Shown: positions 1-34,933, counted from the first letter of the stretch. The stretch: 64,000 nt of DNA from an uncultured Pseudanabaenaceae cyanobacterium (GCA_938021205.1 CALIGI010000001.1:2636-66635), one strand, 5' to 3'. Numbers and translations: made by a program. Notes: generated from the letters alone by a model not told the origin.

Positions 1-5
1 GCTTT

Positions 6-908
6 TTGCCTCTGCTATACAATCGGCGGCATATGGGCGTGACCATGTTTTTGTTGGGGCTAGTCCATGTAATTGGCTTTAACCTAGCGAAAATTCCGCT
101 GTTAGATAAGATTCCCTCAATCAACAAGTTTCCGCTCAAAACGACGGGTGCCTTGACTTGGTATCACGACTTTGGCAACTTAGACCCCATCGTGAGCTTG
201 TTTGCAGGCAATACCCATTACGAATCTTTTATTCGTTTTCCCTTTGAGTCACTCGGGGTAATCGGGTTAGCCATTCTCTTTCTCATGGCGATTACCAGCC
301 ATGATTTTTGGTTGGCAAACCTGACGGCTCCCATCTGGAAAGGGTTGCACATGCTGGTGTATGTGGCCTATGCCGCCTTGGTAGGCCATGTGGTGTTGGG
401 GGCGATTCAAACCAATCGCCATCCAATTCTGACAATAATGGTGGGCTTAGGTCTGGTCTGGATTACAGCCATTCATTTGATCGCAGCATTAAGGGAACGT
501 AAGGGCGATCGCCCCGTTGCAAATGCTACGCCCGCCGTGGATAACTACGTCGAGATTGGCAGCATCAGCGAGATTCCTGACAACCGAGCCAAGATTGTTG
601 CGGTTGCGGGAGAGAGAGTTGCAGTCTTTAAATATGACGGTAAGGTCTCAGCAATTTCCAATGTTTGCCAACACCAAAATGGTCCCTTGGGTGAAGGCAA
701 AGTGATTGATGGTTGCATCACTTGTCCTTGGCATGGCTATCAATATTTGCCAGAGACTGGCGGGTCGCCACCGCCCTTTGCCGAGTCTGTGCCTACGTTT
801 AACGTGCGGCTTGAAGGCGATCGCATTTTCATCAGCACCATCCCCAATCCTCCTGGAACGCAAACACCCGCTGCTCCCATCCATCCTGGCATGGAGGGTA
901 GAGCATGA
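6..908 (+). CDS. Ferric-reductase-like transmembrane (heme b type) domain fused to a C-terminal Rieske [2Fe-2S] domain; the 5' end is probably cut by the window edge
   Basis: The ORF is open to the window start. It has several hydrophobic helices with conserved His (LGLVHVIGF, HMLVYVAYAALVGHVVLG). The Rieske ligand motif is CQHQNGPLGEG-x7-CPWHGYQY. Confidence 0.75.
   Translation: MPLLYNRRHMGVTMFLLGLVHVIGFNLAKIPLLDKIPSINKFPLKTTGALTWYHDFGNLDPIVSLFAGNTHYESFIRFPFESLGVIGLAILFLMAITSHDFWLANLTAPIWKGLHMLVYVAYAALVGHVVLGAIQTNRHPILTIMVGLGLVWITAIHLIAALRERKGDRPVANATPAVDNYVEIGSISEIPDNRAKIVAVAGERVAVFKYDGKVSAISNVCQHQNGPLGEGKVIDGCITCPWHGYQYLPETGGSPPPFAESVPTFNVRLEGDRIFISTIPNPPGTQTPAAPIHPGMEGRA
505..512. repeat. 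HIP1 octamer palindrome GCGATCGC (one example copy; the motif recurs dozens of times across the window)
   Basis: Exact GCGATCGC at 505-512. Many more copies occur, e.g. inside 10337-12619, 28025-31483 and 49097-51145. HIP1 over-representation is a known cyanobacterial signature. Confidence 0.9.
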
Positions 909-1696
909 ACCCTGATCCCATGAATAAACGTGATTCTCAAGCATCCAATCCCACTGAAGATGAATTCTTCAGTGGCTACAGTCGCCTACCAAAAGGTATT
1001 AAGCGCTTTCTGTTTCGGTTCATTCCGCTACTGTTTGTCGGAGTGGCATTATTTGGCTTCTTTGTTCCCCGCCTCCATGATCAATTCAATGCGGGCAAAT
1101 TTGGCGGAGGTGAATTACAGGGATTTCTAGTGGGTGAGCCAGTCCCCCACTTACTAGTTCCTCGTAAAGGAAAGGTGGAATCTGGTTCCAAATTTTCCCG
1201 CTACTTACTATCAGCTAACAATAAGGCAGGCGTTTCGGCCAAGGTGACAGACCATGTGGGCAAGTGGGTCAAGATCAAGGGACTGATGGTCCACCGCAAC
1301 AACCTCACCTTAATGACAACTGGCAAGGCTGAGCCCGTTGCAGCACCTGCCAATGCTCCGATCGCGCCAGAACCAGGTATTGAACTGGGTGAGTTCTCCC
1401 TCAAAGGGGAAATCCTCGATGGTAAATGCTATCCCGGTGTGATGAAACCTGGCCAGGGTAAAACCCATCGAGCTTGCGCCATTCGCTGCATTAGTGGTGG
1501 TGTTCCAGCAGTCTTCCTCTCCCACAACGATCAAGGCGATCCGCTCTACTTCCTCTTGGCAGATAGTGCTGGCAAAGCCGTGAATAAACAGGTCTTGGAA
1601 ATGGTGGCTGATCCCCTTGAAATTACTGGGCAGGTGACTCAGTATGGCGATTTCTTTTTGCTAAAGGCTGACCCCTCAAGCTACAAGCTCAGTTAA
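905..1696 (+). CDS. Hypothetical single-pass membrane protein with a Cys-containing C-terminal domain, translationally coupled to the upstream Rieske gene
   Basis: Its ATG at 905 overlaps the TGA of the previous ORF (ATGA). It has one hydrophobic helix (FLFRFIPLLFVGVALFGFFV) and the motif GKCYPGVMKPGQGKTHRACAIRCISGG. Confidence 0.6.
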   Translation: MNPDPMNKRDSQASNPTEDEFFSGYSRLPKGIKRFLFRFIPLLFVGVALFGFFVPRLHDQFNAGKFGGGELQGFLVGEPVPHLLVPRKGKVESGSKFSRYLLSANNKAGVSAKVTDHVGKWVKIKGLMVHRNNLTLMTTGKAEPVAAPANAPIAPEPGIELGEFSLKGEILDGKCYPGVMKPGQGKTHRACAIRCISGGVPAVFLSHNDQGDPLYFLLADSAGKAVNKQVLEMVADPLEITGQVTQYGDFFLLKADPSSYKLS

Positions 1697-1754
1697 CCTG
1701 CTGACTTCGATGCAGAAAAACATCCCTCACCCCAGTTCATCTGAAGAACTTACT

Positions 1755-1812
1755 TCGTTTTGCGTTCGGTCCCCCTTCTCTCTTAGGAGAAGGGGCTAGG
1801 GGATGAGGTTCG
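1755..1812. repeat. MITE-like palindromic repeat family A, right-half copy
   Basis: cgttttgcgttcggtcccccttctctcttaggagaaggggctaggggatgaggttcg matches the right halves of the copies at 9747-9850 and 47127-47235. It contains the hairpin ccccttctc-tctta-ggagaagggg. Confidence 0.75.
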
Positions 1813-1999
1813 TTTTTAGTCAAGTGATTCCCAAGGCTTTATTCCTGGTGACAAAGTCTGATTACTTGGGATAGGTGCTTGCTATGGCATCTATCCCTAA
1901 ATGCTTCTTGCACAGTCTTCAAGCTCTCACTAAGGTTGGTGGCGAGCATGGAAATGCGATCAAAACCCGACTTATTTTGGAAGGAGAATCTCCATAGTT

Positions 2000-2707
2000 A
2001 TGCCTGGGATTTTATTGGCGATTGGCTTAGCTTTAATCCATGGGTTTGCCTCTCAAATTCCCATTGAGGCTTTCGTTCCTAAAAAACGCTGGCTATCTTT
2101 TGCTGGTGGGGTTTCCCTAGGCTATGTCTTCTTAGAGATTTTCCCGGAACTGAGCCATGCCCAAGAAGAGCTACTTCACTCAGAGGCTCCTTTTCTAGGC
2201 TATCTAGAAAATCACATTTATATCCTGGCTTTACTGGGATTAGTAATGTTCTATATTCTGGACAAAATTGCCCTGGGTACTAGAGCTAATCAGAATAAGA
2301 ATGGTTCACTCTTCTTCTGGATTCATATCTTTTCGTTTGCATTATTCAATAGCATTTTGGGATATTTACTTCAGGATTTAGCTCGACATAGCTTGCTCTC
2401 TTGCATTCTTTTATTCGTAGCACTGGCTCTGCATTTGTTCATTGTGGATGAGAGTTTGCGTGAACATCATCGAGTTCCCTATGACAAAATCGGTCGTTGG
2501 ATCTTAGCTGCCGCAGTTATTTTAGGCATGGTGTTAGGTCAGGGAATGCATTTACAAGAGGCTACCCTCTCAATTGTCTGGTCTTTCTTGGCAGGGAGCA
2601 TTATCCTAAATGTCTTGAAGCGGGAATTGCCATCGGAGCAGGACACCTGTGTTGCTTCTTTTCTAGGTGGCACCCTATTGTTCTCTGTATTGCTGAATTT
2701 ACGATAG
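2000..2707 (+). CDS. Polytopic membrane protein of unknown function (a remote ZIP-like metal-transporter resemblance is only a guess)
   Basis: 235 aa with about 7 hydrophobic segments. His/acidic motifs are LEIFPELSH and HLFIVDESLREHH. Confidence 0.55.
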   Translation: MPGILLAIGLALIHGFASQIPIEAFVPKKRWLSFAGGVSLGYVFLEIFPELSHAQEELLHSEAPFLGYLENHIYILALLGLVMFYILDKIALGTRANQNKNGSLFFWIHIFSFALFNSILGYLLQDLARHSLLSCILLFVALALHLFIVDESLREHHRVPYDKIGRWILAAAVILGMVLGQGMHLQEATLSIVWSFLAGSIILNVLKRELPSEQDTCVASFLGGTLLFSVLLNLR

Positions 2708-2828
2708 GAACTATGTCATGAATGTAGTCAAAATTTCAGACTGGAATGAGTTGGGAGATCGCCCCCCGCAGCAGGGAGTTTTGCTACTTTCTGTGTTACT
2801 AAACTTACAATAAAGGATTGATTTAATC

Positions 2829-3587
2829 ATGTCTGAACAACTGAAGAAAATTACTGAGCATCAATGCCAGAATGCACCTAAAAATTACAGCGATTTAAAA
2901 GCTCTCTTTTTAAATTGCACATTAAATCGAACCCCTGTGCTTTCCCACACTCGCGGTGTGATTGATATCGCAAAGACTATTTTTGAAGCCAACGGCGTTC
3001 AAACAAAAGTGATTCGCCCGGTTGATTATGACATCCCTGCAGGTTTGGGGGTAGATATGTCTCAAACCGCCGAATGGGATAAGGATGACTGGCCACAACT
3101 TCAAAAAGAAGTCGATGACACTGATATTTTGGTGCTTTGTACTTCGGTTTGGTTGGGTGAAAAAAGTTCTGTCTGTAACAGAGTTCTAGAACGAATGTAT
3201 GGATACACCCACTTACTCAATGATAAGGGTCAGTACCGTGACTACGGCAAAGTTGGGGCGACATTAATCACTGGAAATGAAGATGGGATCAAACATTGTG
3301 CGATGAACATCCTGTTTTCTCTATCGCACATTGGCTACACCATCCCCCCCCAAGTCGATGCGGGCTGGTTAGGTGAGGTTGGTCCTGGTCCTTCTTACTC
3401 AGACCCTGGCTCAGGAGGGCCTGGCAATGATTTCACCAATCGAAATACAACATTCTTGGCTTGGAATTGCATGCACATGGCTCGCATGTTGAAGGATAAC
3501 GGTGGTATCCCTGGCCATGGCAACCAGCCTAATGCTTGGCAGGCAGGCTGCAAGACGGATTTCAAAAATCCCGAGCATAAAATCTAA
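2829..3587 (+). CDS. Flavodoxin-fold NAD(P)H-dependent FMN reductase family protein
   Basis: The N-terminal LFLNCTLNRTP-type flavodoxin-like start and DILVLCTSVWLGEKSSVCNRVLERM are typical of the NADPH-dependent FMN reductase / multimeric flavodoxin family. The next gene follows 25 nt downstream. Confidence 0.65.
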   Translation: MSEQLKKITEHQCQNAPKNYSDLKALFLNCTLNRTPVLSHTRGVIDIAKTIFEANGVQTKVIRPVDYDIPAGLGVDMSQTAEWDKDDWPQLQKEVDDTDILVLCTSVWLGEKSSVCNRVLERMYGYTHLLNDKGQYRDYGKVGATLITGNEDGIKHCAMNILFSLSHIGYTIPPQVDAGWLGEVGPGPSYSDPGSGGPGNDFTNRNTTFLAWNCMHMARMLKDNGGIPGHGNQPNAWQAGCKTDFKNPEHKI

Positions 3588-3612
3588 CGGTTTCATTTCA
3601 GGAATCCCAACA

Positions 3613-5577
3613 ATGTCTCAAGTAACCCATGGAGAAAAAATGCAGTGGTTCTGTGTCGCCGAGCTAGACGAACTCCCCGAAGGTCGTGTTAAAACCGTCG
3701 TTGCAGGGCATAAGAGCATTGCCCTGACCCACTACAACGATCAATACGGTGCCCTGGATAATCGCTGCCCTCACCAGGGCGGTCCCCTGGGCGAAGGCTC
3801 CATTGAAAACGGACTGCTGCGTTGCCCCTGGCATGGCTGGGACTATTGCCCCCTGACGGGGCAGCCGCCGGGAAACTTAGCTGTGGATGATTCCCTCGAA
3901 ACCTTCCCAGTAGAAGTCCGAGAAGACGGTATTTATGTTGGTCTGACAACTGAAGCCCCACACATTCGTACCGTCACTGATGTCATGGCAGAGACCATGG
4001 TTAATTGGGGCGTCACCCATGTGTTTGGCATGGTGGGTCATTCCAATTTGGGTCTCGCCGATGCCCTGCGACGGCAGGAGCTACAAGGCAATCTCACCTT
4101 CATCGGCATTCGCCATGAGGGAGCTGGAGCCTTTGCGGCCTCGGCCTATGCCAAGCTGACCGGCAAGCCTGCTGCCTGTTTGACCATTGCCGGGCCAGGC
4201 GCAACGAACCTGCTAACCGGGATGTGGGATGCCAAGGTGGATCGGGCTCCGGTATTGGCTCTAACTGGCCAGGTCAGTTCCCAAGTCTTGGGCACAGGCA
4301 ACTTCCAGGAATGCGATCTGTCTGCTGCCTTCAGCGGTGTAGCCGCCTGGAGCGGCACGGTCCTTAGCCAGAGTAAACATGCAGAGCTGATGAGCCTAGC
4401 AGTGAAGCATGCCCTGCTAGAACGCAACGTTTCCCACCTAATCTTCCCCGACGAAATCCAGACCCAGCCAGCGGGGGATGCCAAGGCCGGTAGCCCCGAA
4501 GGTCGCATCACGCCCCTGCAAATTGCACCGCCACCGGATGCCCTAGCAACTGCTGTAGAAAACCTGCAAAAGGCCAAGCGTCCCGTCATCATCGTGGGGC
4601 ACGGCGCTCGGTTCCACATGAAAGCCATTACGGCCTTGGCGGAACAGCTGAATGCGCCAGTGCTCACAACCTTTAAAGCCAAGGGACAAATCTCCGATCG
4701 CCATCCCCTAGGCTGCGGTGTCCTCGGTCGCAGTGGCACCCCCATTGCCAGCTGGTTTATGAACGAATCGGATCTACTGGTGGTCCTCGGAGCCTCCTTT
4801 TCCAACCACACCGGCATTTACCCCGGCAAGCCGATCATTCAGGTTGATTTTGATCCCTTGGCCCTGGGCAAGTTCCATCCCGTTACCGTACCCGTTTGGG
4901 GTGAGCTCAGCATCGTGGTCGAGCAATTCAAATCAGCCGTGGCAGGCAGCAATCAAGCCACGGATCAGCGGGCTGAGATTGGCGATCGCTGGAAGATCTG
5001 GCGCGAAGAAAAGCTCCGCCGCGAAGCCGACGACCGGGGCAATGGCGTCAACTCCGCCAGCATTTTCGCCGCCATGACCCGTAAGGTTCCCGCCAATGCC
5101 GTCATCTCAGTGGACGTGGGCAACAACACCTATTCCTTCGGGCGCTACTTTGAGTGCGAAGCCCAGTCAGTGCTGATGTCAGGCTACCTCGGCTCGATTG
5201 GCTTTGGCTTTGCCGGAGCTTTAGGAGCTTGGGCCGCAGCGGGGCACGAACGTCCAATTGTTTCGCTGTCCGGCGACGGTGGCTTTGGCCAATACATGGG
5301 CGACTTCAACACAGCAGTGAAGTACGAGATGAACATCACCCATATTTTGGTGAACAACAGTCAGTTGGGCAAAATCAGTAAGGAGCAGCGGGCCGGGGAG
5401 TGGGATGTTTGGCAAACATCGTTGCACAATCCCAATTTTGCCGAGTACGCCAAGATTTGTGGCGGCTTTGGCATACAGGTGACGGATCAGGCTGAACTGG
5501 ATGATGCGATCGCGGCTGCCTTGGCTTATGAGGGACCGGCGATCGTCGAAATCATTGCTGATGCTGAGCTGATTTAA
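3613..5577 (+). CDS. Fusion protein: N-terminal small Rieske [2Fe-2S] domain plus a thiamine-pyrophosphate enzyme (pyruvate oxidase / acetolactate synthase superfamily)
   Basis: Rieske motif CPHQGGPLGEG-x8-CPWHGWDY. TPP N-domain: VTHVFGMVGHSNLGLADAL, IRHEGAGAFAASAYAKLTGKPAACLTIAGPGATNLLTG. TPP-binding motif: GDGGFGQYMGDFNTAVKYEMNITHILVNNSQLG. I chose the ATG at 3613 because the track ORF start at 3502 overlaps the upstream gene. Confidence 0.8.
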   Translation: MSQVTHGEKMQWFCVAELDELPEGRVKTVVAGHKSIALTHYNDQYGALDNRCPHQGGPLGEGSIENGLLRCPWHGWDYCPLTGQPPGNLAVDDSLETFPVEVREDGIYVGLTTEAPHIRTVTDVMAETMVNWGVTHVFGMVGHSNLGLADALRRQELQGNLTFIGIRHEGAGAFAASAYAKLTGKPAACLTIAGPGATNLLTGMWDAKVDRAPVLALTGQVSSQVLGTGNFQECDLSAAFSGVAAWSGTVLSQSKHAELMSLAVKHALLERNVSHLIFPDEIQTQPAGDAKAGSPEGRITPLQIAPPPDALATAVENLQKAKRPVIIVGHGARFHMKAITALAEQLNAPVLTTFKAKGQISDRHPLGCGVLGRSGTPIASWFMNESDLLVVLGASFSNHTGIYPGKPIIQVDFDPLALGKFHPVTVPVWGELSIVVEQFKSAVAGSNQATDQRAEIGDRWKIWREEKLRREADDRGNGVNSASIFAAMTRKVPANAVISVDVGNNTYSFGRYFECEAQSVLMSGYLGSIGFGFAGALGAWAAAGHERPIVSLSGDGGFGQYMGDFNTAVKYEMNITHILVNNSQLGKISKEQRAGEWDVWQTSLHNPNFAEYAKICGGFGIQVTDQAELDDAIAAALAYEGPAIVEIIADAELI

Positions 5578-5800
5578 GGATGTGCACAGCATTGGCAATG
5601 GGCTCAATCCTTGCAGTTATTCTCAATCCTAAATCGTGGACTCCCACACACCCTGCAAGCGCATGCCTGTGTACCTCCTACAGTCAACTCTTGTGATAAA
5701 GCTGCTTTGACTCGAACTGAGACATGTATGAGCCGGTGGCGACGTTTCATGGCTGGTCAAGGTTTCAAATTTAATGCTTGGCCAAATTCTCAAACAGCCT

Positions 5801-6769
5801 CTAAGGACCATTCTCTAGGATGTCTTGGAGTATTTCGCGAATACTGCGAGGCTGCCAACCTAGCTCTTGCTGAGCTTTAGCGGCATTCACACGCACGCAA
5901 CGATCATAAATATAATGAACTCGCTCTCGGCTCAGCAATGGATTAATCGAGAGCGCACGTCCAATGGGATCTAGGAGATTTCCCAGAAGTCGTACCAAGA
6001 ATTTAGGGGGCTCTTGGGGGACAGACACTTTGGTTTTCTCACCCAACATTTTAAACATTTCGGTGGTGGAGAGCTCCCCAGCAGAAATGATGTAATGCTC
6101 TCCAGAGGGGCCTTGCTCAGCAGCTAGGAGCATGGCACTAACCAGGTCATCTACATGAACAATACCGGTGATGCGATCGCCCCCCGGCCAAAATTTAAGC
6201 TTCCCATTGAGGAACAACCGAATGACAGGCCCAAAATGAGGATCACCTGGCCCGAAAATCCCCACGGGCATCACGCTCACCGTCGGTTGCCCCTGGGCCG
6301 CTGCTGCATCCACCAGTTGCTGGGCCTCGTATTTCGTGCGATCGTAGGCGGAGGAAAAATCGCGCTGGGTTCGCACGAAAGTCTCATCCACAGCGATTCC
6401 AGCAGTATCGCCATAAATCCCAATGGTGCTGCAATAGACCAACTTGGGCATGGGAGACATCTGGGCCGCAGTTTCCAGCACAGCCTTGGTGCCTTCCACA
6501 TTAACCTGGGTCATTCGCTCCGCATCAACCAGACCTAGATCAACATAGGCGGCTGTGTGAAACACCACGGCCACATCTGCCATGGCTTGCTTTAAAGCAG
6601 TGTGATCGGTGATGTCACCATAGACAAATTGGGCGCTCGTTTGGGAGAGGCGATCGCGGTTAGGGCTGGACTGTCGAACCAGCGCAATAACCTGATCACC
6701 TCGGGCTTCCAAGGCCTTGACTAAATGAGACCCGGTGAAGCCACTGGCCCCTGTTACTAGCACTTTCAT
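5801..6769 (-). CDS. NAD-dependent epimerase/dehydratase family SDR (possible 3-keto reductase)
   Basis: Rossmann motif MKVLVTGASGFTGSHLV and catalytic YxxxK (YDRTKY). Its start overlaps the upstream stop (ATGA at 6766-6769). Confidence 0.85.
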   Translation of the reverse strand: MKVLVTGASGFTGSHLVKALEARGDQVIALVRQSSPNRDRLSQTSAQFVYGDITDHTALKQAMADVAVVFHTAAYVDLGLVDAERMTQVNVEGTKAVLETAAQMSPMPKLVYCSTIGIYGDTAGIAVDETFVRTQRDFSSAYDRTKYEAQQLVDAAAAQGQPTVSVMPVGIFGPGDPHFGPVIRLFLNGKLKFWPGGDRITGIVHVDDLVSAMLLAAEQGPSGEHYIISAGELSTTEMFKMLGEKTKVSVPQEPPKFLVRLLGNLLDPIGRALSINPLLSRERVHYIYDRCVRVNAAKAQQELGWQPRSIREILQDILENGP

Positions 6770-10152: not shown

Positions 10153-10370
10153 ATGAATTCATCAGCGAAGCGTGGGTCATCAGCGAAAGCTTATTCTCTT
10201 GATCTGCAACAGAAACTAGTCGAAGCGTATTCGCAAGATGGCATCTCCCTACGGAAGCTTGCTCAACAACTTGGAGTTGCGGCGCACTTCGTTCAAAAGC
10301 TACTGAAGCAAGCTCGCAAGACGGGTAGCCTCACTCCTAAGCTCCGAACTTCCCCAACGCCGACCAAGCT
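10153..10370 (+). pseudogene. IS630/Tc1-family transposase N-terminal HTH fragment
   Basis: [51 protein letters not shown] matches the typical IS630 N-terminus. There is no DDE domain, and the ORF tail runs antisense into the 3' end of the ATPase gene. Confidence 0.5.
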
Positions 10371-12619
10371 CGAAACTTTCGTAACCTTAGGGCATTGGTC
10401 ACCACTGACACCGAGCTAAAAGCCATTGCTCCTCCAGCAATCATGGGATTGAGCAATAGGCCAAACGCAGGGTAGAGAATTCCCGCTGCGACAGGAATTC
10501 CAATGATGTTGTAGATAAAAGCAAAAAAGAGGTTCTGGCGAATATTAGCGATCGTGGCCTTGCTGAGCTGGATGGCAGTGACGACGCCTTGGAGGTCGCC
10601 GGATATGAGAGTGATGTCGCTGGCAGCGATCGCCACATCGATCCCCGTCCCAATTGCTATACCCACATCAGCTTGAGCCAATGCTGGTGCATCGTTAATG
10701 TCATCTCCTACCATGGCAACCCGCTGACCCTGATCTTGCAGACGCTTAACCTGGGCCGCTTTTTCTGCGGGACGAACTTCGGCTAGGACGCGCTCAATGC
10801 CAACAGCCTTGGCGATCGCAGCAGCAGTCTGAGGGTTATCCCCCGTCAGCATCACCACCTCCAGCCCCATGTGCTGCAACTGTTGTACAGCCTGAACCGA
10901 GGAAGGCTTCAGGGTATCGGAAATACCGACTAAACCCTGTACATCGCCATTCACCGCAATCCAAGCCGTGGTCTTCACCTCAGATTCCCATTGCATGCGC
11001 TGTTGCTGCAGCATCTGAGTCTCGATGCCCAGACTCTGCATCCAGCGCTCCGTGCCAATTTGCACGAGTGAGGCCTGGCCTTGAACTATGACATGGCCTT
11101 CCACAGCTCGACCGGTGACCGCCTCAAAAGCGGTCACGCTGGGTAGCGCTTGGTGATTCACACCTTGGGCTTCGGCGTACTGCATAACAGCTTCGGCAAG
11201 GGGATGCTCAGAATTGTGTTCCACCGCAGCGACGAGGATGAGCAGATGGGTGCTAGCTCCTTCGAGGGTGAAGTAGTTCGTGACGGTTGGCCTGCCTTGG
11301 GTGAGAGCTACAGTTTTATCTACAACAATAGTTTGCAGCTTGTGGGCTTTTTCTAAACTGTCTGCCCCCTTAATCAAAATACCGTTCTCAGCTCCCTTGC
11401 CCGTGCCCACCATGATCGAGGTGGGAGTTGCCAAACCCAGGACACACGGACAGGCAATGATCAGCACGCCAACGGTGGTGAGTAAGGCCAGACTCATGTT
11501 GCCCGTAGCGTTGAACCAAATGACGAAGGTGAGCATAGCGATCGCCATTACCACCGGCACAAACCAACCCGTCACCTGGTCCGCCAGCTTCTGAATGGGG
11601 GCTGTGGAGCCCTGTGCATCTTGCACCAGCTGGACAATTTGGGCCAGCATTGTGTCTTTACCCACGCGGGAGGCTCTGAATTTGAACCGCCCCGTTTTAT
11701 TGATCGTCGCCCCAATCACCTCATCTCCCACCGTTTTTTTGACCGGTAGAGATTCCCCCGTAATCATCGACTCTTCCACGGTGGAACGACCCTCTACCAC
11801 CTCGCCATCCACGGGCACCTTTTCCCCCGGACGCACAATCACGACGTCACCCACTATCACCTGCTCCAGCGGCAGATCGATCTCCTGGCCATTCCGCACA
11901 ACCCTAGCGATCCTAGCCTGGAGCCCTATCAACTTGCGAATTGCATCGGAGGTTTGCCCCTTAGCACGCTCCTCAAAGTAACGACCTAGCAACAGCAGGG
12001 CAATAATAACCACCGCTGCTTCGTAATAAACATCCGGGGCGAGTCCCTGGGTGCGGAGCAGACCGGGGAAAACGGTCACAACCACTGAATAGAGATAGGC
12101 CGCTCCCGTCCCCAAAGCAATTAGCGTATTCATATTGGCAGCGCGGTGGCGCAAGGCCTTCCAAGCTCCCCCATAAAACGACTGACCACACCAAAACAAA
12201 ACGGGGGTTGCTAATACAAGTTGAAGCCAGGAATTGTGTAAGAACATTGGCCAGCCGGGGATGTCAATGCCCAGCATCATCGGCAATGTACCTAGCACTA
12301 GCAATATACCAACAGCACCGCTGATCATGACTTTTTTGAGCAGAGCTTGCTGGGTCAGGCGGCGATCGCGCTGTTCCTGGGCATCTACAGCCCCGCTATC
12401 CAGCTCGTTCAGCGGTTGGGCTTGGTAACCTGCATCCACAACCGCTTGCTGGATGGCTTCTACATTGGTGGCGCGATCGTTATATTCCACACTGGCCTGG
12501 GCTGCCGCAAAATTAACCTGGGCCAGGGTGACCCCCGGTACCTGCTGAATTGCAGACTGGACACCATTGGCACAAGAGGCACAGCTCATGCCCTTGAGTT
12601 TTAAGGTTGCTAAGGCCAT
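10337..12619 (-). CDS. Cu(I)-type P1B heavy-metal-translocating P-type ATPase with non-canonical phosphorylation and hinge motifs
   Basis: HMA domain GMSCASC, TGES, and the CPC in TM6. YN ([11 protein letters not shown]) and MxxSS ([10 protein letters not shown]) indicate the Cu(I) P1B-1 class. SEHPLA and MLTGDN are present. DKTGT reads DKTVALT, and GDGINDAP reads GDDINDAP. Confidence 0.9.
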
Positions 12620-21022: not shown

Positions 21023-22435
21023 ATGGAATCTCTCTGGCAAAGCATCACCCTAGCCCGCCTCTCCATTACCCAATGGCAGCGGGGCAGCTGGCTACACCGC
21101 TTCACCGTTGGCCTACTCGAGCCCTGGCGCAATAGCAGCCTACTCAACCACTATGGCGAAGCCCTCGGCACCTTGCTGATCAGCATCGTCCTAGGCCTGG
21201 CTCCCTTTGTGGACAACACCCTCACCGCTGTGCTGTTAATTGCCTGCGGAGGCCTCTGGTTTCTACTGACGATTTCTGACAAACCGGGGCGGGGTCTCAC
21301 GCCCATTCACCTCGTGGTGGCGCTCTATTGGGGATGCATGTTGCTCACCACGGGCTTATCGCCGGTGAAAACAGCTGCCGCCACAGGCCTCGTGAAAGCC
21401 AGCCTCTATTTGGCGCTGTTCTTGCTGGCAGCGAGAGTCTTCCGAAATGGTCGTCTGCGCAACTGGGCTGTGATGGTCTATCTCTTTGTCACCCAAGTGG
21501 TGAGCGTCTACGGTATTCGCCAGCATTTCTTTGGGGCAGATGCCTTGGCAACCTGGGTAGACCCCAATTCTCCCCAGGCCCAAACCACTCGGGTTTATAG
21601 CTACTTGGGGAACCCCAACCTACTGGGTGCTTATCTCATGCCCGGCATTGCCCTCAGCATTGCAGCCTTCTTTATTTGGAAAGGTTTAGGACCCAAAGCT
21701 TTAGCAGTGCTAATGTTCCTAACCAATTCGGCCTGCTTGGTGCTTACTTACAGTCGCGGTGCCTGGATTGGCATGTTGTTGACTCTGGCGACCTTTGCAT
21801 TGCTGCTGCTGGCTTGGTTGAGTGTGAAATTTACACCCTTCTGGCGACGCTGGGCCTTGCCTGCGGTCCTTGGGGCCGGTACAGCCTTTGTCATTGTTGC
21901 CGTCGTGGCGCTGGAGCCTCTACGCACGCGAGTCGCCAGCATGTTTGTGGGGCGTGAAGATAGCAGTAATAACTTCCGCCTCAATGTCTGGTCAGCTGTG
22001 GGAGACATGATCAAAGACCGCCCCTTCTTCGGCATTGGTCCAGGGAATAAGGCATTCAACTCCATTTATCCGCTATATCAACGGCCTCGCTATACAGCGC
22101 TGAGCGCCTATTCCATTTTTCTGGAAACAATTGTTGAGCTCGGATTTGTTGGGTTTGTCGCTTTCATTTGGATGCTGACAGTGATCTTTAACCAGGGCTG
22201 GCGCTCCTTGAAGCTCCTGCGAGACAAAGGCAATCTGCAAGCCTTTTGGTTGATGGGAGCGATCGCCACTCTCCCCGGAGAACTGGGCCAAGGCCTCTTC
22301 GACACCGTCTGGTACCGCCCCGAAATCCAAACCCTCTGGTGGCTCTGCGTTGGCCTCATCGCCAGTTTCTATAGCCCTATCCAGCAGAGTTTCGTGGACA
22401 AAGCGCATGAAAAGGCGCTTTCAACCGCGCGCTAG
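21023..22435 (+). CDS. ictB: IctB-family protein (O-antigen-ligase-like polytopic membrane protein)
   Basis: The N-terminus (WQSITLARLSITQWQRGSWLHRF...WRNSSLL) resembles Synechococcus IctB. It has more than 10 TM segments and an O-antigen ligase-like core (LTYSRGAWIG). Confidence 0.75.
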   Translation: MESLWQSITLARLSITQWQRGSWLHRFTVGLLEPWRNSSLLNHYGEALGTLLISIVLGLAPFVDNTLTAVLLIACGGLWFLLTISDKPGRGLTPIHLVVALYWGCMLLTTGLSPVKTAAATGLVKASLYLALFLLAARVFRNGRLRNWAVMVYLFVTQVVSVYGIRQHFFGADALATWVDPNSPQAQTTRVYSYLGNPNLLGAYLMPGIALSIAAFFIWKGLGPKALAVLMFLTNSACLVLTYSRGAWIGMLLTLATFALLLLAWLSVKFTPFWRRWALPAVLGAGTAFVIVAVVALEPLRTRVASMFVGREDSSNNFRLNVWSAVGDMIKDRPFFGIGPGNKAFNSIYPLYQRPRYTALSAYSIFLETIVELGFVGFVAFIWMLTVIFNQGWRSLKLLRDKGNLQAFWLMGAIATLPGELGQGLFDTVWYRPEIQTLWWLCVGLIASFYSPIQQSFVDKAHEKALSTAR

Positions 22436-28024: not shown

Positions 28025-31000
28025 TTAAGCCCCCGTCACAGCCATTTTCTGCTTCAGTAATTGAGTGGCCGTATTGAGCAACTCATAGTCCGTGTAGGGC
28101 TTGCTGAGAAATTCTTCTGCGCCCAGCTCCAGCGCAAGCTGGCGGTATTTGCCACCACTGCGGGACGTGAGAATCGCGATGGGAACGCCCGCGATGCCTT
28201 CGATGCTGCGGCTCTGGCTCAAGAACTCAAAGCCGTTCATGCGGGGCATTTCTAGGTCGCAGAAGATCAAGTCCACATCGGCATTCTTTTGCAAGCTAAC
28301 CATGGCATCGAGGCCATCTTCTGCTTGGATGACTTCGTAGCCAACACCTCGGAGGGTACGTTCCAGGGTGCGGCGCTGGGTGAGGGAGTCATCAATAATG
28401 AGAATGCGGGGAGCACGATCCTCTGTCGGTTGAACCTGATCTGTTGTCTCGCGACGCCGGAGAGTGACGCTGCTGGCTTGGCTACCCGTTTCGCAAACTT
28501 GCTCCAGCAACAAGCTGGGTTCAATGGCCAAAGCCAAGTGAGCATCACCCAGAACCGTACAGCCCTGGATATAAGCTGGCGGCGCGATAGTAGCCCCCAT
28601 AGCGCGGATAGATAACTCCTGCTCGCCCAAGACCTGATCGACTTGGATGCCTCGCAGGCCATCACTACAGGAAACCAACAGCACGGGCTGCATCACCACA
28701 GCATCACCATCATTGCTCGCTGTGGGGGGATGGGCGTAGTCCACTAGCTCCGAGAGGTTGAGCACCGGAATAATGGAATCTTCATCGCCCTGACGCAGGG
28801 TCAAAACCTGTCGGCCATCGCTGAGGATGCGCAGTTGCTCGCCGCGAGGCAGGAGCACCTGCTCGATCGCATCGGCGGCGATGGCATAGGTGGTGCCTTT
28901 GCTGCGACAGATCAACTGCTTGGTGATGGTGACGGCGAGGGGGAACTGGAGGATAAAGCTGGTCCCTTTTCCAGGCTCAGAGCGAATCGAGAGGTTGCCA
29001 TCTAGAGCTTCGATTTGGGAGCGCACCACGTCCAAGCCCACGCCCCGACCGGAAAGGTCGCTGACGGCGGCGGCGGTGGAGAAGCCGGAGTGGAACATTA
29101 ACTCCAACAGTTGCCCTTCGGTAACATCTTCCACTTCTGTGGCGCTGAGCAATTCCTGGGCGATCGCTTTCTCAGCAATACGTTCTAAATTGACACCCTT
29201 ACCATCATCGCGAATCTCGATCACCGTGCGATTGCCCTGCTGATAAGCCGAAAGCTCAACCCGCCCCTTAGGGGACTTGCCTGCAGCTTGGCGTTCTTCT
29301 GGGGTCTCAATACCATGATCGAAGGCATTGCGAACCAGATGCAATAGGGAGTCGTAGAGGGAGTCTAGGGTGACCTTATCGATCAGGACATGCTTGCCAA
29401 AAAGACCCAACTCCACCTGCTTACCGTAGGTCGTACTCAGTTGCTGTAGCACCCGAGGGAAGCGCTGGAACAGTTCTCCCACGGGCTTGAGGCGAACAGA
29501 AGCCAGGTCGTCACGGAGTTGACGAAACAACCGCTGGCGACCATCACAAATCTGTTGATTCTGCTTGGTTTGCTGCTCCAGAGCTTCAATCACGATCTCC
29601 AGCTGGACGGACTCATTCAGCGCTTTTTGAGTGACGATGTGGAGATCGCTGTAGCGGTCCATTTCTAAAGCATCGAACTGCTCACTCAGGGCCACTTGGG
29701 GCGGCAAGTGAGGAATCGCAGGGGCGGGCTTGGCATTCGATTTTTGGGGATAGCGCGCAATGCTAGCCAGGGCATCGGCATCACGCTGGGCCTTGGAGAA
29801 ACCCCACTCGTCTGTGCCACCTTGCTGGACCGCTGTTTGCAGGTCGCTGAGGGTCCGGCGGTGGGTCCGCAACTGGGCAAGCAGCTCCAGAATGCCTTGG
29901 CGCAGTTGATCATCTTGTTCAGAAGACTGAATTTGATTGGTGAGCAGTTCACCCACGAGGTGATCTAGGCGTAGCACCTGGTCTAGGCCTACGCGCATGG
30001 TCACCTTAGATTCTCGCCCCCGGCTGAGCTTAGTAGAGCTTGAGGCAATCAGGGTGGCTGCTTTGGAACTGCGACGGGCTTGGGGCGTTGCCGGTGTACT
30101 GGCGGCGGGTGACTTTGCGGCGGACTGCGCCTGGGACATGGCAATAGCAGCAGCGGTACCAGCGAGACTGGGCTCCGGTGCCATAGGTTCCTCAACCTTG
30201 TCAGCCGCTGTTTGCGTTAGAGCAACTTCCGGGGTGGCTTCTGCTTCTTCACGGGACGTAACGGTGTCTGCAATAGTCGTTGATTCAACCTCGCCAAACA
30301 GATCATCTAGGTTGGCTAGGGGAGCATCAATGGTCTCTGGAATACCTAGCGCTTCGGGACTTTCCCCCATACCCATAGGACTGGGAGCCATGGCGGTTGC
30401 CCCCGTAGCAGATAAATCTGGCACAGTGACATCTTGCTCTTCATCATCGAGATCGCCAAATAGCGACTCCAATTGACCGTCTAGCATGTCGGGGATGTCA
30501 GCAGAATCATCACCAGCAGTTAAGCCTGCCGCGACCGGTTCCTGAGGTGTAATCGCCGGTATGACTTCACCAATGCCACCAAAGAGGCCTTCCAATCCGC
30601 CAATGTCAAGATTGTCGGGCAGGTTGCTAGGAATATCCGTTGCTGCAACACCAGCATCGGTGATGTTGTTGGCAGCCATGCCGACTCCACTATTGCTAGC
30701 TTCGGAGACTAAGGCTATCAATGTCTCGGAAGGCTGACCACCCTGCTCGCGATCGCCCTCCAGAACTAATTGCTGCCCAGCCCGCAGGTCCTCATAGGAC
30801 TGTTGTAACAGCGCCAAATGACCCGGCTGACTGGCTAGGCCATCCAGGGTAATCTGGGCAATGCTACCAAAGCCCGGCAGTTGCAAAGATTCTGCTAGGC
30901 CCAAAAAGACTTCACAGGTCGTTTGTAGCGTTGTGGCAATCTCGTCGGGGTTAGCACCATCTGCCAAGGCCGTTTGCAGCGTATTGAGACGCTGCTCCAC

Positions 31001-31483
31001 ACCCACCTCAAACATGGACTTAACCACGTCAAAGCCCAGCTCTTCCGCTGTGGGAATAGGGGTTTCGCGATCGAACAAATCGCCCAGTTTGTCCTGCAAC
31101 CGAGAAATGATCGCCGCTGCCCGATTAAAGATGTCCGATTCATCGACGGAGCTGCCGTTGATTTCGGCCATCAGGGGCGTCCGTAGGCAGTCATAGCCCT
31201 CAAACAGTAGGGCCTCTACCTCATCATCAATTTCAATATCGGGGTTATAGAGGGCACGGAAGACATCCTCCAGGACATGGGCCACATGCTTCACCGTTTC
31301 CAGACCCACCGTTGCCGCTGCACCTTTGAGGGTGTGGGCATAGCGCATCAGGCTATGGACACGGGCAGAGGTGCGGTCTTCCCGCAAGCTCAGCAGATCC
31401 TGCTCAATATTTTGCAGCAGGTCTGTCGCCTCATTGACGAAATAGGGAAAAGCTTCTTCGCGGAAAGAGGAGTCGGTGGACAT
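28025..31483 (-). CDS. Hybrid CheA-like histidine kinase (Hpt - long acidic linker - HATPase - CheW - REC), PixL/PilL-like
   Basis: Hpt: MRYAHTLKGAAATVGL. HATPase: HLVRNAFDHGIE, IRDDGKGV, GRGVGLDVV. REC: ILIIDDSLTQRR...DLIFCDLEMPRMNGFEFL. Confidence 0.9.
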   Translation of the reverse strand: MSTDSSFREEAFPYFVNEATDLLQNIEQDLLSLREDRTSARVHSLMRYAHTLKGAAATVGLETVKHVAHVLEDVFRALYNPDIEIDDEVEALLFEGYDCLRTPLMAEINGSSVDESDIFNRAAAIISRLQDKLGDLFDRETPIPTAEELGFDVVKSMFEVGVEQRLNTLQTALADGANPDEIATTLQTTCEVFLGLAESLQLPGFGSIAQITLDGLASQPGHLALLQQSYEDLRAGQQLVLEGDREQGGQPSETLIALVSEASNSGVGMAANNITDAGVAATDIPSNLPDNLDIGGLEGLFGGIGEVIPAITPQEPVAAGLTAGDDSADIPDMLDGQLESLFGDLDDEEQDVTVPDLSATGATAMAPSPMGMGESPEALGIPETIDAPLANLDDLFGEVESTTIADTVTSREEAEATPEVALTQTAADKVEEPMAPEPSLAGTAAAIAMSQAQSAAKSPAASTPATPQARRSSKAATLIASSSTKLSRGRESKVTMRVGLDQVLRLDHLVGELLTNQIQSSEQDDQLRQGILELLAQLRTHRRTLSDLQTAVQQGGTDEWGFSKAQRDADALASIARYPQKSNAKPAPAIPHLPPQVALSEQFDALEMDRYSDLHIVTQKALNESVQLEIVIEALEQQTKQNQQICDGRQRLFRQLRDDLASVRLKPVGELFQRFPRVLQQLSTTYGKQVELGLFGKHVLIDKVTLDSLYDSLLHLVRNAFDHGIETPEERQAAGKSPKGRVELSAYQQGNRTVIEIRDDGKGVNLERIAEKAIAQELLSATEVEDVTEGQLLELMFHSGFSTAAAVSDLSGRGVGLDVVRSQIEALDGNLSIRSEPGKGTSFILQFPLAVTITKQLICRSKGTTYAIAADAIEQVLLPRGEQLRILSDGRQVLTLRQGDEDSIIPVLNLSELVDYAHPPTASNDGDAVVMQPVLLVSCSDGLRGIQVDQVLGEQELSIRAMGATIAPPAYIQGCTVLGDAHLALAIEPSLLLEQVCETGSQASSVTLRRRETTDQVQPTEDRAPRILIIDDSLTQRRTLERTLRGVGYEVIQAEDGLDAMVSLQKNADVDLIFCDLEMPRMNGFEFLSQSRSIEGIAGVPIAILTSRSGGKYRQLALELGAEEFLSKPYTDYELLNTATQLLKQKMAVTGA

Positions 31484-31538
31484 GGCGGCAGGAAAGGAGA
31501 GGGCGGGAAGAGTCGGGGCTTGGAAGAGAGAGTCTTAA

Positions 31539-31669
31539 CGTAGGTTGGGTTGAGGCTTCCGAAACCCAACAGGTTCAGGTAGTAGCTTTGTCTCGTTAGG
31601 GTTGAAGCATGAAACCCAACAAGCTTGAGCTTGGGCCTGTTGGGTTTCATGCTTCAACCCAACCTACGA
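31539..31669. repeat. MITE-like repeat family C forming a 23-bp stem hairpin inside the chemotaxis operon
   Basis: cgtaggttgggttgaggcttccgaaacccaaca (31539-31571). gggttgaagcatgaaacccaaca (31599-31621) pairs perfectly with tgttgggtttcatgcttcaaccc (31639-31661). Confidence 0.8.
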
Positions 31670-31690
31670 GTTACCGATCGCGGGGTTTGG

Positions 31691-34600: not shown

Positions 34601-34933
34601 AACCGTAATAAATTTGCTGTTGTCGCCGGCCATTGCTGGATATCCTTGTTGATTCTGACCTTGACTGTTTTGAGTGGCAGACTGGGGTGAATAGGTGCGA
34701 TCGCCGCCGTTTTGACGCAGGTTCTGAACGTAATTCCCCGTCGGATCCGCCTCAACTGAAGCAGCACTGGACGGAGTCTTGCTGGCCGGTAGTTGGGGGC
34801 GGTTGGGATTGGTGGCTTGGGGCAGTTCACCTTCGTCATAGACAAAAACCTCTTGGAGGCGATCGTCGATTTTCTGGGAGTCGCCCACGTTAGAAGTGGA
34901 CTCAGACTGGGGACGGCGTTGGAAAATTTTCAT
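31691..34933 (-). CDS. Soluble methyl-accepting chemotaxis protein with three GAF domains, PixJ/TaxD-like
   Basis: Three GAF cores (DRVIFYRC..., CDRAVIYQC..., CDRAVIYKF...). The C-terminal MA domain contains [38 protein letters not shown]. No TM segment is present. Confidence 0.9.

Follow-up and report, generated by a model that had tools for sequence, protein, structure and literature searches.

A Rieske domain fused to a pyruvate-oxidase-like ThDP enzyme: a widespread bacterial and archaeal protein with a candidate built-in electron exit

INTRODUCTION

Pyruvate-oxidase-family enzymes are the textbook example of ThDP and flavin coupled to an external acceptor, either O2 or a membrane quinone. 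What would such an enzyme do with an iron-sulfur domain of its own? The question is raised by a gene at positions 3613..5577 (plus strand) of a 64 000-nucleotide stretch of DNA from an uncultured Pseudanabaenaceae cyanobacterium (GCA_938021205.1, CALIGI010000001.1:2636-66635; hereafter, the window). An earlier reading of the sequence alone proposed that this gene encodes a Rieske module joined to a TPP enzyme of the pyruvate oxidase (POX)/acetolactate synthase (ALS) superfamily, and that the fusion could connect oxidative decarboxylation of a 2-oxo acid directly to an Fe-S acceptor. Here we ask whether the fusion is real, to which family its catalytic part belongs and where its electrons might go.

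RESULTS

The fusion gene and its distribution

Positions 3613..5577 (stop codon included) translate without interruption into 654 aa. The longest ORF begins at an in-frame GTG at 3502; the ATG at 3613 has AGGAA located 8 nt on its 5' side, the alignment of fusion homologues begins only at residue ∼9–12, and an identical 654-aa protein with the same start call is already present in a database record. Pfam places a Rieske domain (PF00355, aa 11–85, E = 3.8e–17) ahead of TPP_enzyme_N (120–237), TPP_enzyme_M (312–438) and TPP_enzyme_C (501–647), the last three with E-values of 1e–31 to 1e–35. All four are well over their gathering scores, and the PYR, central and PP domains follow each other in this order. 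Translation and Pfam therefore agree on the single ORF with a Rieske module and three TPP-enzyme domains described in the sequence-only reading, and no stop or frameshift was found between the domains. A Pfam search of the fusion for POR/PFOR and [4Fe-4S] ferredoxin-like domains detected none. The Rieske and PYR domains are separated by a linker of just 7 residues (TEAPHIR, aa 113–119, 3949..3969, plus strand), in which E114 is invariant and H117 nearly so. In the AlphaFold model of the whole protein (pTM 0.83) this linker is predicted with high confidence, which suggests that the Rieske and ThDP parts are held in a fixed rather than a floppy arrangement.

The survey of other genomes that had been recommended returned the full-length fusion in at least 595 species-representative genomes at 54–95% identity; redox neighbours recur at part of the loci compared (see below). 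Its carriers are Cyanobacteria, many other bacterial phyla and haloarchaeal megaplasmids, and they include complete genomes: Acaryochloris marina (NC_009925), PCC 7376 (CP003946), and haloarchaeal and Mycobacteroides plasmids. Cyanobacterial proteins are 62–64% identical to the haloarchaeal ones and 54% identical to the Mycobacteroides plasmid copy. Full-length occurrence on finished chromosomes and plasmids leads us to reject an assembly artefact or frameshift. Mean column conservation is 0.76 in the Rieske part versus 0.78 in the catalytic part, and across 77 homologues from many phyla both parts are, as judged from the alignment, under the same purifying selection. No solved structure in the PDB spans both the Rieske and the ThDP parts, and no paper on a Rieske–pyruvate-oxidase-type fusion was found in the full-text literature. 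Together with the NCBIfam result given below, this agrees with the initial remark that the architecture is not recognised from characterised enzymes. The fusion enzyme is real, widespread and unstudied.

A complete Rieske domain of the low-potential ferredoxin type

The Rieske [2Fe-2S] domain (aa 11–112, 3643..3948, plus strand; PF00355) is predicted as a beta-rich fold with high pLDDT (74–96) and has the features of the low-potential ferredoxin type, without the disulfide cysteines. Box I (C52-P-H54, 3766..3774, plus strand) and box II (C71-P-W-H74, 3823..3834, plus strand) read CPHQGG and CPWHG, respectively, and the second Cys is absent from both. The four ligands C52, H54, C71 and H74 are identical in 76/76 alignable homologues; their conservation, on which the original proposal depended, is thus complete, and a degenerate, ligand-less NirD-like Rieske domain is rejected on the same ground. 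The module proved to be whole, as had been claimed, but Rieske_2/NirD is not its best description: that model, with 28.3 bits, only just passes its cut-off of 27, and the classical/Rieske-ferredoxin type scores best. The closest PDB matches of aa 8–112 are CarAc, T4moC and BphF. An exhaustive search of representatives with the Rieske domain returned mostly gene fragments; the longer matches, sorted by Pfam, were mainly ThDP fusions with few other architectures, and they define the subtype. By its sequence, the fusion Rieske is a distinct subtype, CPHQGGPLGEG...CPWHG, common to this enzyme and to a membrane protein encoded nearby (the FRD-Rieske protein, see below), whose Rieske domain is 38–41% identical to it and is the closest paralogue within the cluster.

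The ThDP part resembles pyruvate oxidase

The PYR domain (3970..4323, plus strand) carries Glu169 (4117–4119), the counterpart of the catalytic Glu touching N1' of ThDP (E50 in the E. coli enzyme), and an FQE motif at aa 231–233, whose FQ is invariant and whose E233 is found in 74/77 homologues. The PP domain (5113..5553, plus strand; the protein ends 7 residues further) contains the Mg-ThDP motif at aa 554–582 (5272..5358, plus strand). This motif was correctly recognised at the outset and its residues are conserved in the homologues, but its spacing is GDG-x24-NN and not x26. E169, G554-D555-G556-G557 and N582 are invariant across the 77 homologues, with minor variants of the motif in Haloferax (SDG; TD replacing NN), so the TPP-binding residues are invariant or nearly so.

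Among NCBIfam models the best for the fusion is the pyruvate oxidase PRK08611 (404 bits versus a cut-off of 742). PRK09124 for PoxB scores 289 (versus 792), TIGR02720 277 (versus 638) and the biosynthetic ALS model TIGR00118 272 (versus 538); no equivalog cut-off in NCBIfam was passed. An oxalyl-CoA decarboxylase model is absent among the best 25 families listed, the lowest of which has 197 bits. The best PDB match by both sequence and fold is PoxB (3eya), with Lactobacillus plantarum POX also at the top in Foldseek, and the nearest unfused annotated relatives are pyruvate oxidases of Bacillus, Listeria and Lactobacillus at 33–37% identity (∼35% for Bacillus). On these comparisons the ThDP part is pyruvate-oxidase-like and not ALS-like. 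Some fusion homologues are named 'acetolactate synthase' in databases. The separate housekeeping ilvB noted at 41116-42882 is upheld, since it passes the cut-offs of PRK07418 (1108.8 bits versus 942) and TIGR00118 (852 versus 538). With ALS scores under the cut-offs and under those of POX, and with the real ilvB elsewhere in the window, an ALS paralogue is rejected, and the view that the fusion is not the housekeeping ALS stands.

The central domain, Lys587 and the lost tail

The central domain (4546..4926, plus strand) corresponds to the nucleotide/FAD-binding domain of the relatives. Its G329-x-G331, GVLGRSGT (aa 369–376) and SFSNHTGI (aa 395–402) are invariant among the fusion homologues, and in related enzymes the last two wrap around the flavin. 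R373 aligns with R264 and E591 with E483 of L. plantarum POX, and both are conserved. A search with the central domain only gave 56.7 bits for the FAD enzyme AHAS I and ∼51 for L. plantarum POX, also an FAD enzyme, next to 48.7 for the ADP-binding oxalyl-CoA decarboxylase. FAD enzymes thus rank first, by a margin too narrow to tell FAD binding from ADP binding, and FAD is a putative ligand of this domain.

Lys587 (5371..5373, plus strand) is found in 77/77 fused proteins. At this position the enzymes of E. coli, Listeria and L. plantarum have Phe, and the POX of Bacillus F19 has Met. The Phe, F465 in PoxB and F479 in L. plantarum POX, is situated between ThDP and FAD. An F479W variant of the L. 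plantarum enzyme is deposited as PDB 2ez4. Replacement of the Phe by an invariant Lys means that the internal electron path, if any, differs from that of the textbook enzymes. The unfused POX sequences in the alignment all have a C-terminal tail of 35–50 aa, and every fused protein ends at the PP domain; relative to unfused pyruvate oxidases, the alignment indicates that the fused clade has lost the PoxB-type tail.

Redox genes around the fusion

The gene directly upstream (2829..3587, plus strand), ending 25 bp before the fusion gene, encodes a 252-aa WrbA-like protein of the flavodoxin family (Pfam FMN_red, 30.9 bits; closest PDB structure 5mji, E = 2.5e–38). The depositors of 5mji named it 'BRAMP domain protein', and no paper could be traced in the literature under this name and entry. 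Further upstream lie a 235-aa polytopic membrane protein (2000..2707, plus strand), whose ZIP-like match is weak and under the cut-off and which recurs in cyanobacterial clusters, and a 263-aa protein of no recognised family (905..1696, plus strand) that has a membrane anchor at its N-terminus and four invariant residues, C175, H188, C191 and C195. The first gene of the window (1..908, plus strand; cut by the window start, ∼77 aa missing) encodes a ferric-reductase-type (dihaem b) membrane domain with a C-terminal Rieske domain, which has 38% identity to the fusion Rieske. This FRD-Rieske arrangement is architecture 'M4' in a survey of the ferric-reductase-domain superfamily (PMC3591440), where the description is bioinformatic only. 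The start of the 263-aa gene overlaps the FRD-Rieske stop, and the two genes are always paired. A promoter and terminator scan of positions 1–6500 gave counts no higher than expected from shuffled sequence, so spacing and strand are the only grounds for an operon.

Among 74 non-redundant loci, 44 have at least one recurring redox protein within 10 kb of the fusion, and 30 have none of the recurrent partners within this distance. The most frequent is a Rieske-fused, glutamate-synthase-like (Rieske-GltS-like) protein with an invariant C-x5-C-x4-C 3Fe-4S motif (25/74). FRD-Rieske and its 263-aa partner occur in 14/74 loci, always together and with conserved His pairs 12 and 13 apart; the WrbA-like gene adjoins the fusion in 12/74, always on the same strand and separated from it by a median of 7 bp. 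As Fisher tests of this co-occurrence ignore kinship between loci, they serve as description only. Neither the DUF5996-like nor the 263-aa partner gave a usable match in PDB, Pfam or NCBIfam. In Poribacteria a threonine dehydratase and a class-III aminotransferase, enzymes that make or use 2-oxo acids, are located upstream of the fusion; an acetate-CoA ligase lies 2.4–7 kb from it in 4 loci of two phyla. These genes give a hint of substrate and product. Some loci are found amid metal and oxidative-stress genes (merA, arsenic resistance, P1B ATPase).

DISCUSSION

On balance, we lean towards seeing the fusion as a POX-family, ThDP- and probably FAD-dependent 2-oxoacid dehydrogenase whose electrons would leave through the built-in low-potential Rieske domain. 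Architecture, Rieske ligands, POX affinity and electron-transfer neighbours all agree with the sequence-only proposal; its core, the passage of hydroxyethyl-ThDP/flavin electrons to the Rieske cluster, is a hypothesis. A 2-oxo acid would be decarboxylated on ThDP by the conserved machinery; homology points to pyruvate or 2-oxobutyrate as the substrate, and a dicarboxylic 2-oxo acid may also be considered. The two electrons of the resulting enamine would then move to the flavin of the central domain, as expected from family membership, although the Phe relay is Lys here. From the flavin, single electrons might pass to the N-terminal Rieske domain, which is held by the short conserved linker and whose ligands are conserved, and from its cluster to a locally encoded partner. 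Candidates suggested by gene neighbourhood are, in the window, the WrbA-like FMN protein and the dihaem FRD-Rieske membrane protein together with its periplasmic partner and, in other genomes, the Rieske-fused glutamate-synthase-like FMN/[3Fe-4S] protein.

The direction of flow might be the opposite one. A WrbA-like NAD(P)H flavoprotein would then reduce the Rieske domain and, through it, the enzyme flavin, for a reductive or reduced-flavin-requiring ThDP reaction resembling the chains of Rieske oxygenases. The fusion Rieske is indeed most like ferredoxins that feed catalytic components, the gene that ends 25 bp before the fusion encodes a member of the NAD(P)H-dependent FMN reductase/WrbA family, and in the Rieske-GltS-like neighbour, too, Rieske domains are plausible as electron entry ports. 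We nevertheless hold reverse flow to be unlikely: the enzyme's nearest characterised relatives are without exception oxidative decarboxylases, the WrbA-like gene is present at only 12 of the loci, we know of no reductive reaction in this branch of the ThDP superfamily, and decarboxylation of a 2-oxo acid has a large driving force that favours electron output. Slightly less credible still is an enzyme with ADP or nothing in place of a redox-active flavin, where the ThDP enamine or radical would reduce the Rieske cluster with no carrier in between, much as ThDP passes its electrons to [4Fe-4S] in pyruvate:ferredoxin oxidoreductase (PFOR). The invariant Lys between ThDP and FAD speaks for it, as do the central domain, for which ADP-binding oxalyl-CoA decarboxylase is almost as good a match as the FAD enzymes are, and the second rank of 2-hydroxyacyl-CoA lyases in the fold search. 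Whole-protein scores, however, clearly favour FAD families (POX 404, PoxB 289 and ALS 272 bits), the best 25 families listed include none for oxalyl-CoA decarboxylase, and the flavin-wrapping blocks GVLGRSGT and SFSNHTGI are invariant.

The N-terminal domain is gained where the C-terminal tail, regulatory in PoxB (the titles of structures 3ey9/3eya refer to the basis of membrane binding and activation), is lost, and some loci lie near merA, arsenic resistance and P1B ATPase genes. In a regulatory role, the Rieske domain would sense redox state, O2, NO or iron and gate the active site instead of the autoinhibitory tail, conducting no electrons. We regard this as improbable, since the neighbours are themselves Rieske-bearing or flavin electron-transfer proteins, for which an electron chain is the simpler account, and since the Rieske subtype is common to the FRD-Rieske membrane protein at the identity given above. 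Least probable of all is a non-redox, ALS-like carboligase paralogue with an incidental extra domain, or an artefact of assembly or annotation. The match to ALS models (272 bits) and the database name 'acetolactate synthase' of some homologues would fit a carboligase, but the ALS scores are far under the cut-offs and lower than those of POX, and a genuine ilvB is found elsewhere in the window. Invariant Rieske ligands count against both versions, and the artefact is essentially refuted by an uninterrupted, highly conserved fusion in at least 595 species genomes, finished chromosomes and plasmids included.

If the preferred reading, electron exit through the built-in Rieske domain, is right, it would add a third mode of coupling to those of O2 and quinone, PFOR-like in function yet on an aerobic scaffold. 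A large clade spanning multiple phyla and Archaea has replaced the tail by a built-in Rieske domain and changed the residue between ThDP and flavin. The very strong conservation of the clade implies an important and specific function. Current annotation of its members reads 'thiamine pyrophosphate-binding protein', which hides such a function. Through its gene set, which combines three kinds of Rieske fusion, a dihaem FRD protein, and periplasmic and cytoplasmic partners, an uncharacterised pathway of electron transfer becomes accessible to study, and the enzyme might find use in oxygen-tolerant production of low-potential electrons from pyruvate.

More speculatively, and in our estimate rather doubtfully, the fusion may be the constant hub of a modular 'Rieske-wired' network: an oxygen-tolerant flavin/ThDP source of low-potential electrons from a 2-oxo acid, whose Rieske port would supply interchangeable sinks with matching ports. 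If so, the Rieske-GltS-like sink would allow 2-oxoacid-driven reductive amination without ferredoxin or NAD(P)H, the transmembrane dihaem FRD-Rieske protein would export electrons to a periplasmic Cys/His metalloprotein, and the WrbA-like flavoprotein would be a third outlet. A still bolder version would have a second carboxylate bound by the invariant Lys587, Lys590 and Arg373 and 2-oxoglutarate as the substrate, which would mean one-step oxidation of 2-oxoglutarate to succinate in organisms without 2-oxoglutarate dehydrogenase, such as cyanobacteria.

Among known systems, the closest in fold is E. coli PoxB (3EY9/3EYA), which has the same three-domain ThDP fold (sequence E = 4e–65; TM 0.86 on the target) and whose catalytic Glu, FQE, GDGG...NN and E469-equivalent are conserved in the fusion. 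Identity is only ∼27%, though, and the fusion lacks the C-terminal lipid-binding/autoinhibitory tail, has Lys for Phe465 and adds an N-terminal Rieske domain, so that its acceptor is presumably a protein-bound Fe-S cluster where that of PoxB is a membrane quinone. Firmicute POX from Bacillus, Listeria and Lactobacillus (L. plantarum 1POW/1POX) provides the best curated family, PRK08611, with a score far under 742; these enzymes have no Rieske domain, keep the tail and, where the fusion has Lys587, carry Phe (Met in Bacillus F19). The acceptor of Firmicute pyruvate oxidases is O2 or menaquinone. O2 serves L. plantarum POX; in PoxB, PQO and CidC a membrane quinone is reached via the C-terminal lipid-binding tail. 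Pyruvate:quinone oxidoreductase of Corynebacterium glutamicum (9EV3-9EV6) belongs to the same fold family, with a strong sequence and structure match, but is quinone-linked via its C-terminal region (truncated in 9EV6) and has no Fe-S domain.

On the Rieske side, CarAc (1VCK), T4moC (1VM9) and BphF (1FQT) have the same fold and C-x-H...C-x-x-H ligands as the fusion Rieske and likewise lack the disulfide cysteines. Each of them is a separate protein that shuttles between a reductase and an oxygenase, while the Rieske domain of the fusion is covalently joined to a ThDP enzyme. The FRD-Rieske 'M4' architecture is that of the first gene of the window, a candidate partner and not a homologue of the ThDP enzyme. 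Like the reaction proposed here, that of PFOR/OFOR is a ThDP-dependent oxidative decarboxylation of a 2-oxo acid from which single electrons leave via iron-sulfur clusters. PFOR uses [4Fe-4S] clusters and CoA, has no flavin and is mostly oxygen-sensitive. Its architecture is not homologous to that of the fusion, so the analogy is functional only: where PFOR has [4Fe-4S] clusters, the fusion is predicted to carry a His/Cys-ligated [2Fe-2S] cluster on a POX scaffold.

Architecture and distribution of the fusion

The fusion gene, at 3613-5577(+), is a single ORF of 654 codons, whose product is identical to a 654-aa database record (P0001). An in-frame GTG at 3502 would give a longer ORF, but the ATG at 3613 has a Shine-Dalgarno-like AGGAA 8 nt 5' of it, and alignments of homologues begin only at residue about 9-12. 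Pfam places a Rieske domain (PF00355, aa 11-85, E 3.8e-17; Rieske_2 and Rieske_4 match more weakly) ahead of TPP_enzyme_N (aa 120-237), TPP_enzyme_M (aa 312-438) and TPP_enzyme_C (aa 501-647), which bears out the sequence-only reading of a Rieske module and all three ThDP domains in one ORF. The Rieske ligand boxes are C52-P-H54 and C71-P-W-H74, and the Mg-ThDP motif at aa 554-582 is GDG-x24-NN, the x26 spacing of that reading being a miscount.

The fused family is real, widespread and strongly conserved. A protein search gave more than 120 clusters of ∼650 aa at 71-100% identity, all with Rieske plus three ThDP domains; the named members are cyanobacterial (Stenomitos, Acaryochloris, Leptolyngbya, Leptothoe, PCC 7376) and bear generic names only. 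The survey of other genomes proposed earlier turned up a relative in at least 595 genomes when one genome per GTDB species was scanned. The best 80 of these loci are nearly full-length, spanning query residues about 1-12 to 654 at 64-84% identity, and come from Cyanobacteria, Acidobacteriota, Gemmatimonadota, Poribacteria, Solirubrobacterales, Nitrospirota, Myxococcota, Alpha- and Gammaproteobacteria, Bacteroidota, Trueperaceae, Calditrichia and others. The fusion is also carried by megaplasmids of the haloarchaea Haloferax, Halorubrum, Halorarius and Salinirubellus (62-64% identity) and by a Mycobacteroides abscessus plasmid (54%).

The Cys/His ligands, whose conservation had been singled out for checking, are all four kept in 76/76 covering sequences of a 77-sequence alignment, in which column conservation averages 0.76 over the Rieske part and 0.78 over the ThDP part. 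An artefact, a pseudogene and a degenerate NirD-like domain are all excluded.

Affinity of the catalytic part to pyruvate oxidases

The ThDP part is closest to the pyruvate oxidase (POX) family. Pyruvate oxidase PRK08611 scores highest of the NCBIfam models (404 bits), followed by 'pyruvate dehydrogenase' PRK06457 (309), PoxB PRK09124 (289) and biosynthetic acetolactate synthase (ALS, 272), and no NCBIfam model, these included, reaches its cut-off. An ALS paralogue is excluded by this low ALS score against 404 for POX and by the presence of a genuine ALS at 41116-42882. The latter, previously named as a separate biosynthetic ilvB, does exceed the PRK07418 and TIGR00118 cut-offs, so the argument that the fusion gene is not the housekeeping ALS stands.

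Among solved structures, E. coli PoxB (3eya/3ey9, E 4e-65) and L. plantarum pyruvate oxidase match best in sequence. The AlphaFold2 model (mean pLDDT 85.8, pTM 0.83) matches PoxB, 2-hydroxyacyl-CoA lyase/synthase, L. plantarum POX, AHAS and C. glutamicum PQO, and since aligned lengths are only about 534-570 columns, none of these structures takes in the Rieske part. Among annotated plasmids identity falls sharply, from 55-64% for fused proteins to 33-37% for the next relatives, annotated 'pyruvate oxidase' in Bacillus, Listeria and Lactobacillus. Conserved residues include the catalytic Glu E169 (E. coli E50), R373 at the position of L. plantarum POX R264, and E591 (L. plantarum POX E483, E. 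coli E469), as well as the FQE motif (aa 231-233) and GDGG...NN.

The Rieske domain and its linker

The solved structures nearest to the Rieske domain, CarAc, T4moC, BphF and TodB, are ferredoxins that shuttle electrons in oxygenase systems. High-potential Rieske proteins of bc1/b6f complexes carry extra box cysteines that form a disulfide. Neither ligand box of the fusion has extra cysteines, which, with family knowledge, suggests that the cluster is of low potential. Just 7 residues (TEAPHIR) link the domain to the ThDP part; E114 is invariant and H117 almost invariant, and residues 101-120 are modelled with pLDDT blocks of 96 and 86; such a short, partly invariant and confidently modelled linker argues for a Rieske domain docked in a fixed position rather than flexibly tethered. 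When the representative library was searched exhaustively with aa 1-118, 1067 proteins matched at E up to 1e-10. The longer top matches are mostly ThDP fusions, and they include one triple-Rieske protein, two Glu_synthase, two CDGSH and one Fer4_19 fusion. A 362-aa protein of the library, P0130, is made up of three Rieske domains in tandem that share the subtype of the enzyme's domain, and in other proteins this subtype is joined to CDGSH and Fer4_19 domains.

Genes around the fusion

Four genes precede the fusion gene in the window, all on the same strand. The most distal (1-908(+)), truncated at the window edge, codes for a ferric-reductase-type dihaem membrane domain with a C-terminal Rieske domain (FRD-Rieske), which is 38% identical to that of the enzyme and has in common with it the CxHQxGPLGEG...CPWHG signature. 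Its conserved His pairs, spaced by 12 and 13 residues, fit bis-haem ligation, and positive residues past the last helix suggest that its Rieske domain is cytoplasmic. The stop codon overlaps the start of the next gene (905-1696(+)), encoding a 263-aa protein without known family that is anchored at its N-terminus and in which C175, H188, C191 and C195 are invariant; the two proteins recall an MsrQ/MsrP-like pair of membrane and periplasmic redox proteins. Then come a 235-aa polytopic membrane protein (2000-2707(+)), whose ZIP-transporter match of 22.6 bits is under the cut-off, and a WrbA-like flavodoxin-family protein of 252 aa (2829-3587(+)), whose gene stops 25 bp short of the fusion gene. 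The WrbA-like protein is extraordinarily conserved, with 382 members in its 90%-identity cluster, those named being from several cyanobacterial genera (Acaryochloris, Nodosilinea, Spirulina, Pleurocapsa). The structure nearest to it, 5mji (E 2.5e-38), bears the label 'BRAMP domain protein', and we found no publication that uses this name.

In cyanobacterial loci the 235-aa protein is again encoded 5' of the Rieske genes, at times together with genes for a LysR regulator and a YHS-domain protein (as in homologous locus L003). Otherwise the window is ordinary cyanobacterial chromosome, with genes at 28025-34933(-), 21023-22435(+), 49097-51145(+) and 61225-62907(+) for a CheA-like hybrid kinase beside an MCP with a phytochrome/GAF-like region, IctB, an EF-G paralogue and cytochrome c oxidase subunit I.

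Redox neighbours of the fusion gene are recurrent. ORFs of 85 loci were clustered and searched with profile HMMs, and counts were made within 10 kb on 74 non-redundant loci, 44 of which have at least one recurrent partner. The commonest, a Rieske-GltS-like protein (a Rieske domain fused to a Glu_synthase/FMN domain, ∼540 aa; 25/74 loci, median gap 132 bp, same strand in 23/25), usually lies directly upstream (L003 6290-7903, L008 8204-9925, L066 7081-8697, in local coordinates), and its invariant C-x5-C-x4-C resembles the [3Fe-4S] site of glutamate synthase. A DUF5996-like protein of ∼290 aa is encoded right beside the fusion gene at 21/74 loci (at a median gap of 13 bp, and in 20/21 on the same strand; e.g. 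L008 12064-12990); its DUF5996 match is sub-threshold only, and no PDB or curated-family match was found. Both are absent from the 64-kb window. FRD-Rieske and the 263-aa protein occur at 14 loci each, paired in 14/14. WrbA-like and Rieske-GltS-like proteins co-occur at 0/74 loci (Fisher p = 0.006, uncorrected for relatedness), and nearly the entire partner set is found in loci like L008 (Leptolyngbya) and L066 (a flavobacterium).

Haloarchaeal and mycobacterial copies sit among redox- and metal-stress genes, the M. abscessus copy close to a flavodoxin-family gene. merA and arsenic-resistance genes lie near haloarchaeal copies, and the window has a heavy-metal P1B-type ATPase with an HMA domain at 10337-12619(-), ∼5 kb downstream of the fusion gene. 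From these the fusion may be linked to metal or redox stress.

Proposed electron flow and its alternatives

The best-supported reading, which we hold at slightly better than even, is that of a POX-family 2-oxoacid dehydrogenase passing electrons via its own low-potential Rieske cluster to a locally encoded partner. Electrons would leave the ThDP-bound enamine of a 2-oxo acid, pass probably to FAD and on to the cluster, and from there reach the WrbA-like flavoprotein, FRD-Rieske with its periplasmic partner, or the Rieske-GltS-like reductase. The cofactor content of the enzyme is predicted, and we infer both the direction of flow and the identity of the physiological acceptor.

Flow in reverse, from the WrbA-like reductase, is unlikely; that protein is encoded at 12/74 loci, at a median gap of 7 bp. 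A little less probable again is direct transfer from ThDP to the cluster with no redox-active flavin. Central-domain blocks that match flavin-wrapping segments of relatives (G329-x-G331, GVLGRSGT, SFSNHTGI) are invariant, and FAD enzymes top a search with this domain only (AHAS I 56.7 bits, L. plantarum POX ∼51), but an ADP-binding oxalyl-CoA decarboxylase scores almost as high, at 48.7. We give little credence to the Rieske domain as a sensor standing in for the lost regulatory tail.

Homology suggests pyruvate or 2-oxobutyrate as substrate, as do two gene contexts. In Poribacteria (L023 7294-9658; also L024, L029, L054) the genes directly 5' of the fusion gene, in the same orientation, encode a threonine dehydratase that exceeds its cut-off and a class-III aminotransferase, which hints at deamination-derived 2-oxo acids there, and an acetate-CoA ligase is found 2.4-7 kb from the fusion in four loci of cyanobacteria and alphaproteobacteria. 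Invariant Lys/Arg residues and neighbours handling Glu/2-oxoglutarate suggest instead a dicarboxylic 2-oxo acid.

Comparison with known pyruvate oxidases

The architecture had not been recognised from characterised enzymes, and our searches agree: database entries for fused proteins exist under generic names, and we found no curated NCBIfam family, solved structure or paper describing a Rieske-fused ThDP enzyme. What makes the fusion notable is how widely it occurs, how well it is conserved and that it lies within an uncharacterised multi-Rieske gene set.

We aligned the window, Haloferax and M. abscessus fusions with E. coli PoxB, three Firmicute POX and the window IlvB. Every unfused POX has a C-terminal extension of 35-50 residues with a common LP...QAKG(F/Y) motif, whereas every fused protein ends directly after the PP domain (TPP_enzyme_C). 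In PoxB this extension serves membrane binding and activation, according to the PDB titles of 3ey9 and 3eya. Five residues past the second Asn of the NN motif, PoxB (F465), L. plantarum POX (F479; 2ez4 is its F479W variant) and the Listeria and plasmid L. plantarum POX have Phe, but 77/77 fused proteins have Lys (K587), with K590 and Q592 also invariant. N-terminal Rieske domain, absent tail and Lys for Phe occur jointly in all fused proteins compared. In tail, Phe and cut-off scores the fusion protein departs from what defines PoxB/POX, yet it is clearly a member of their superfamily and is likely to work in a similar way.
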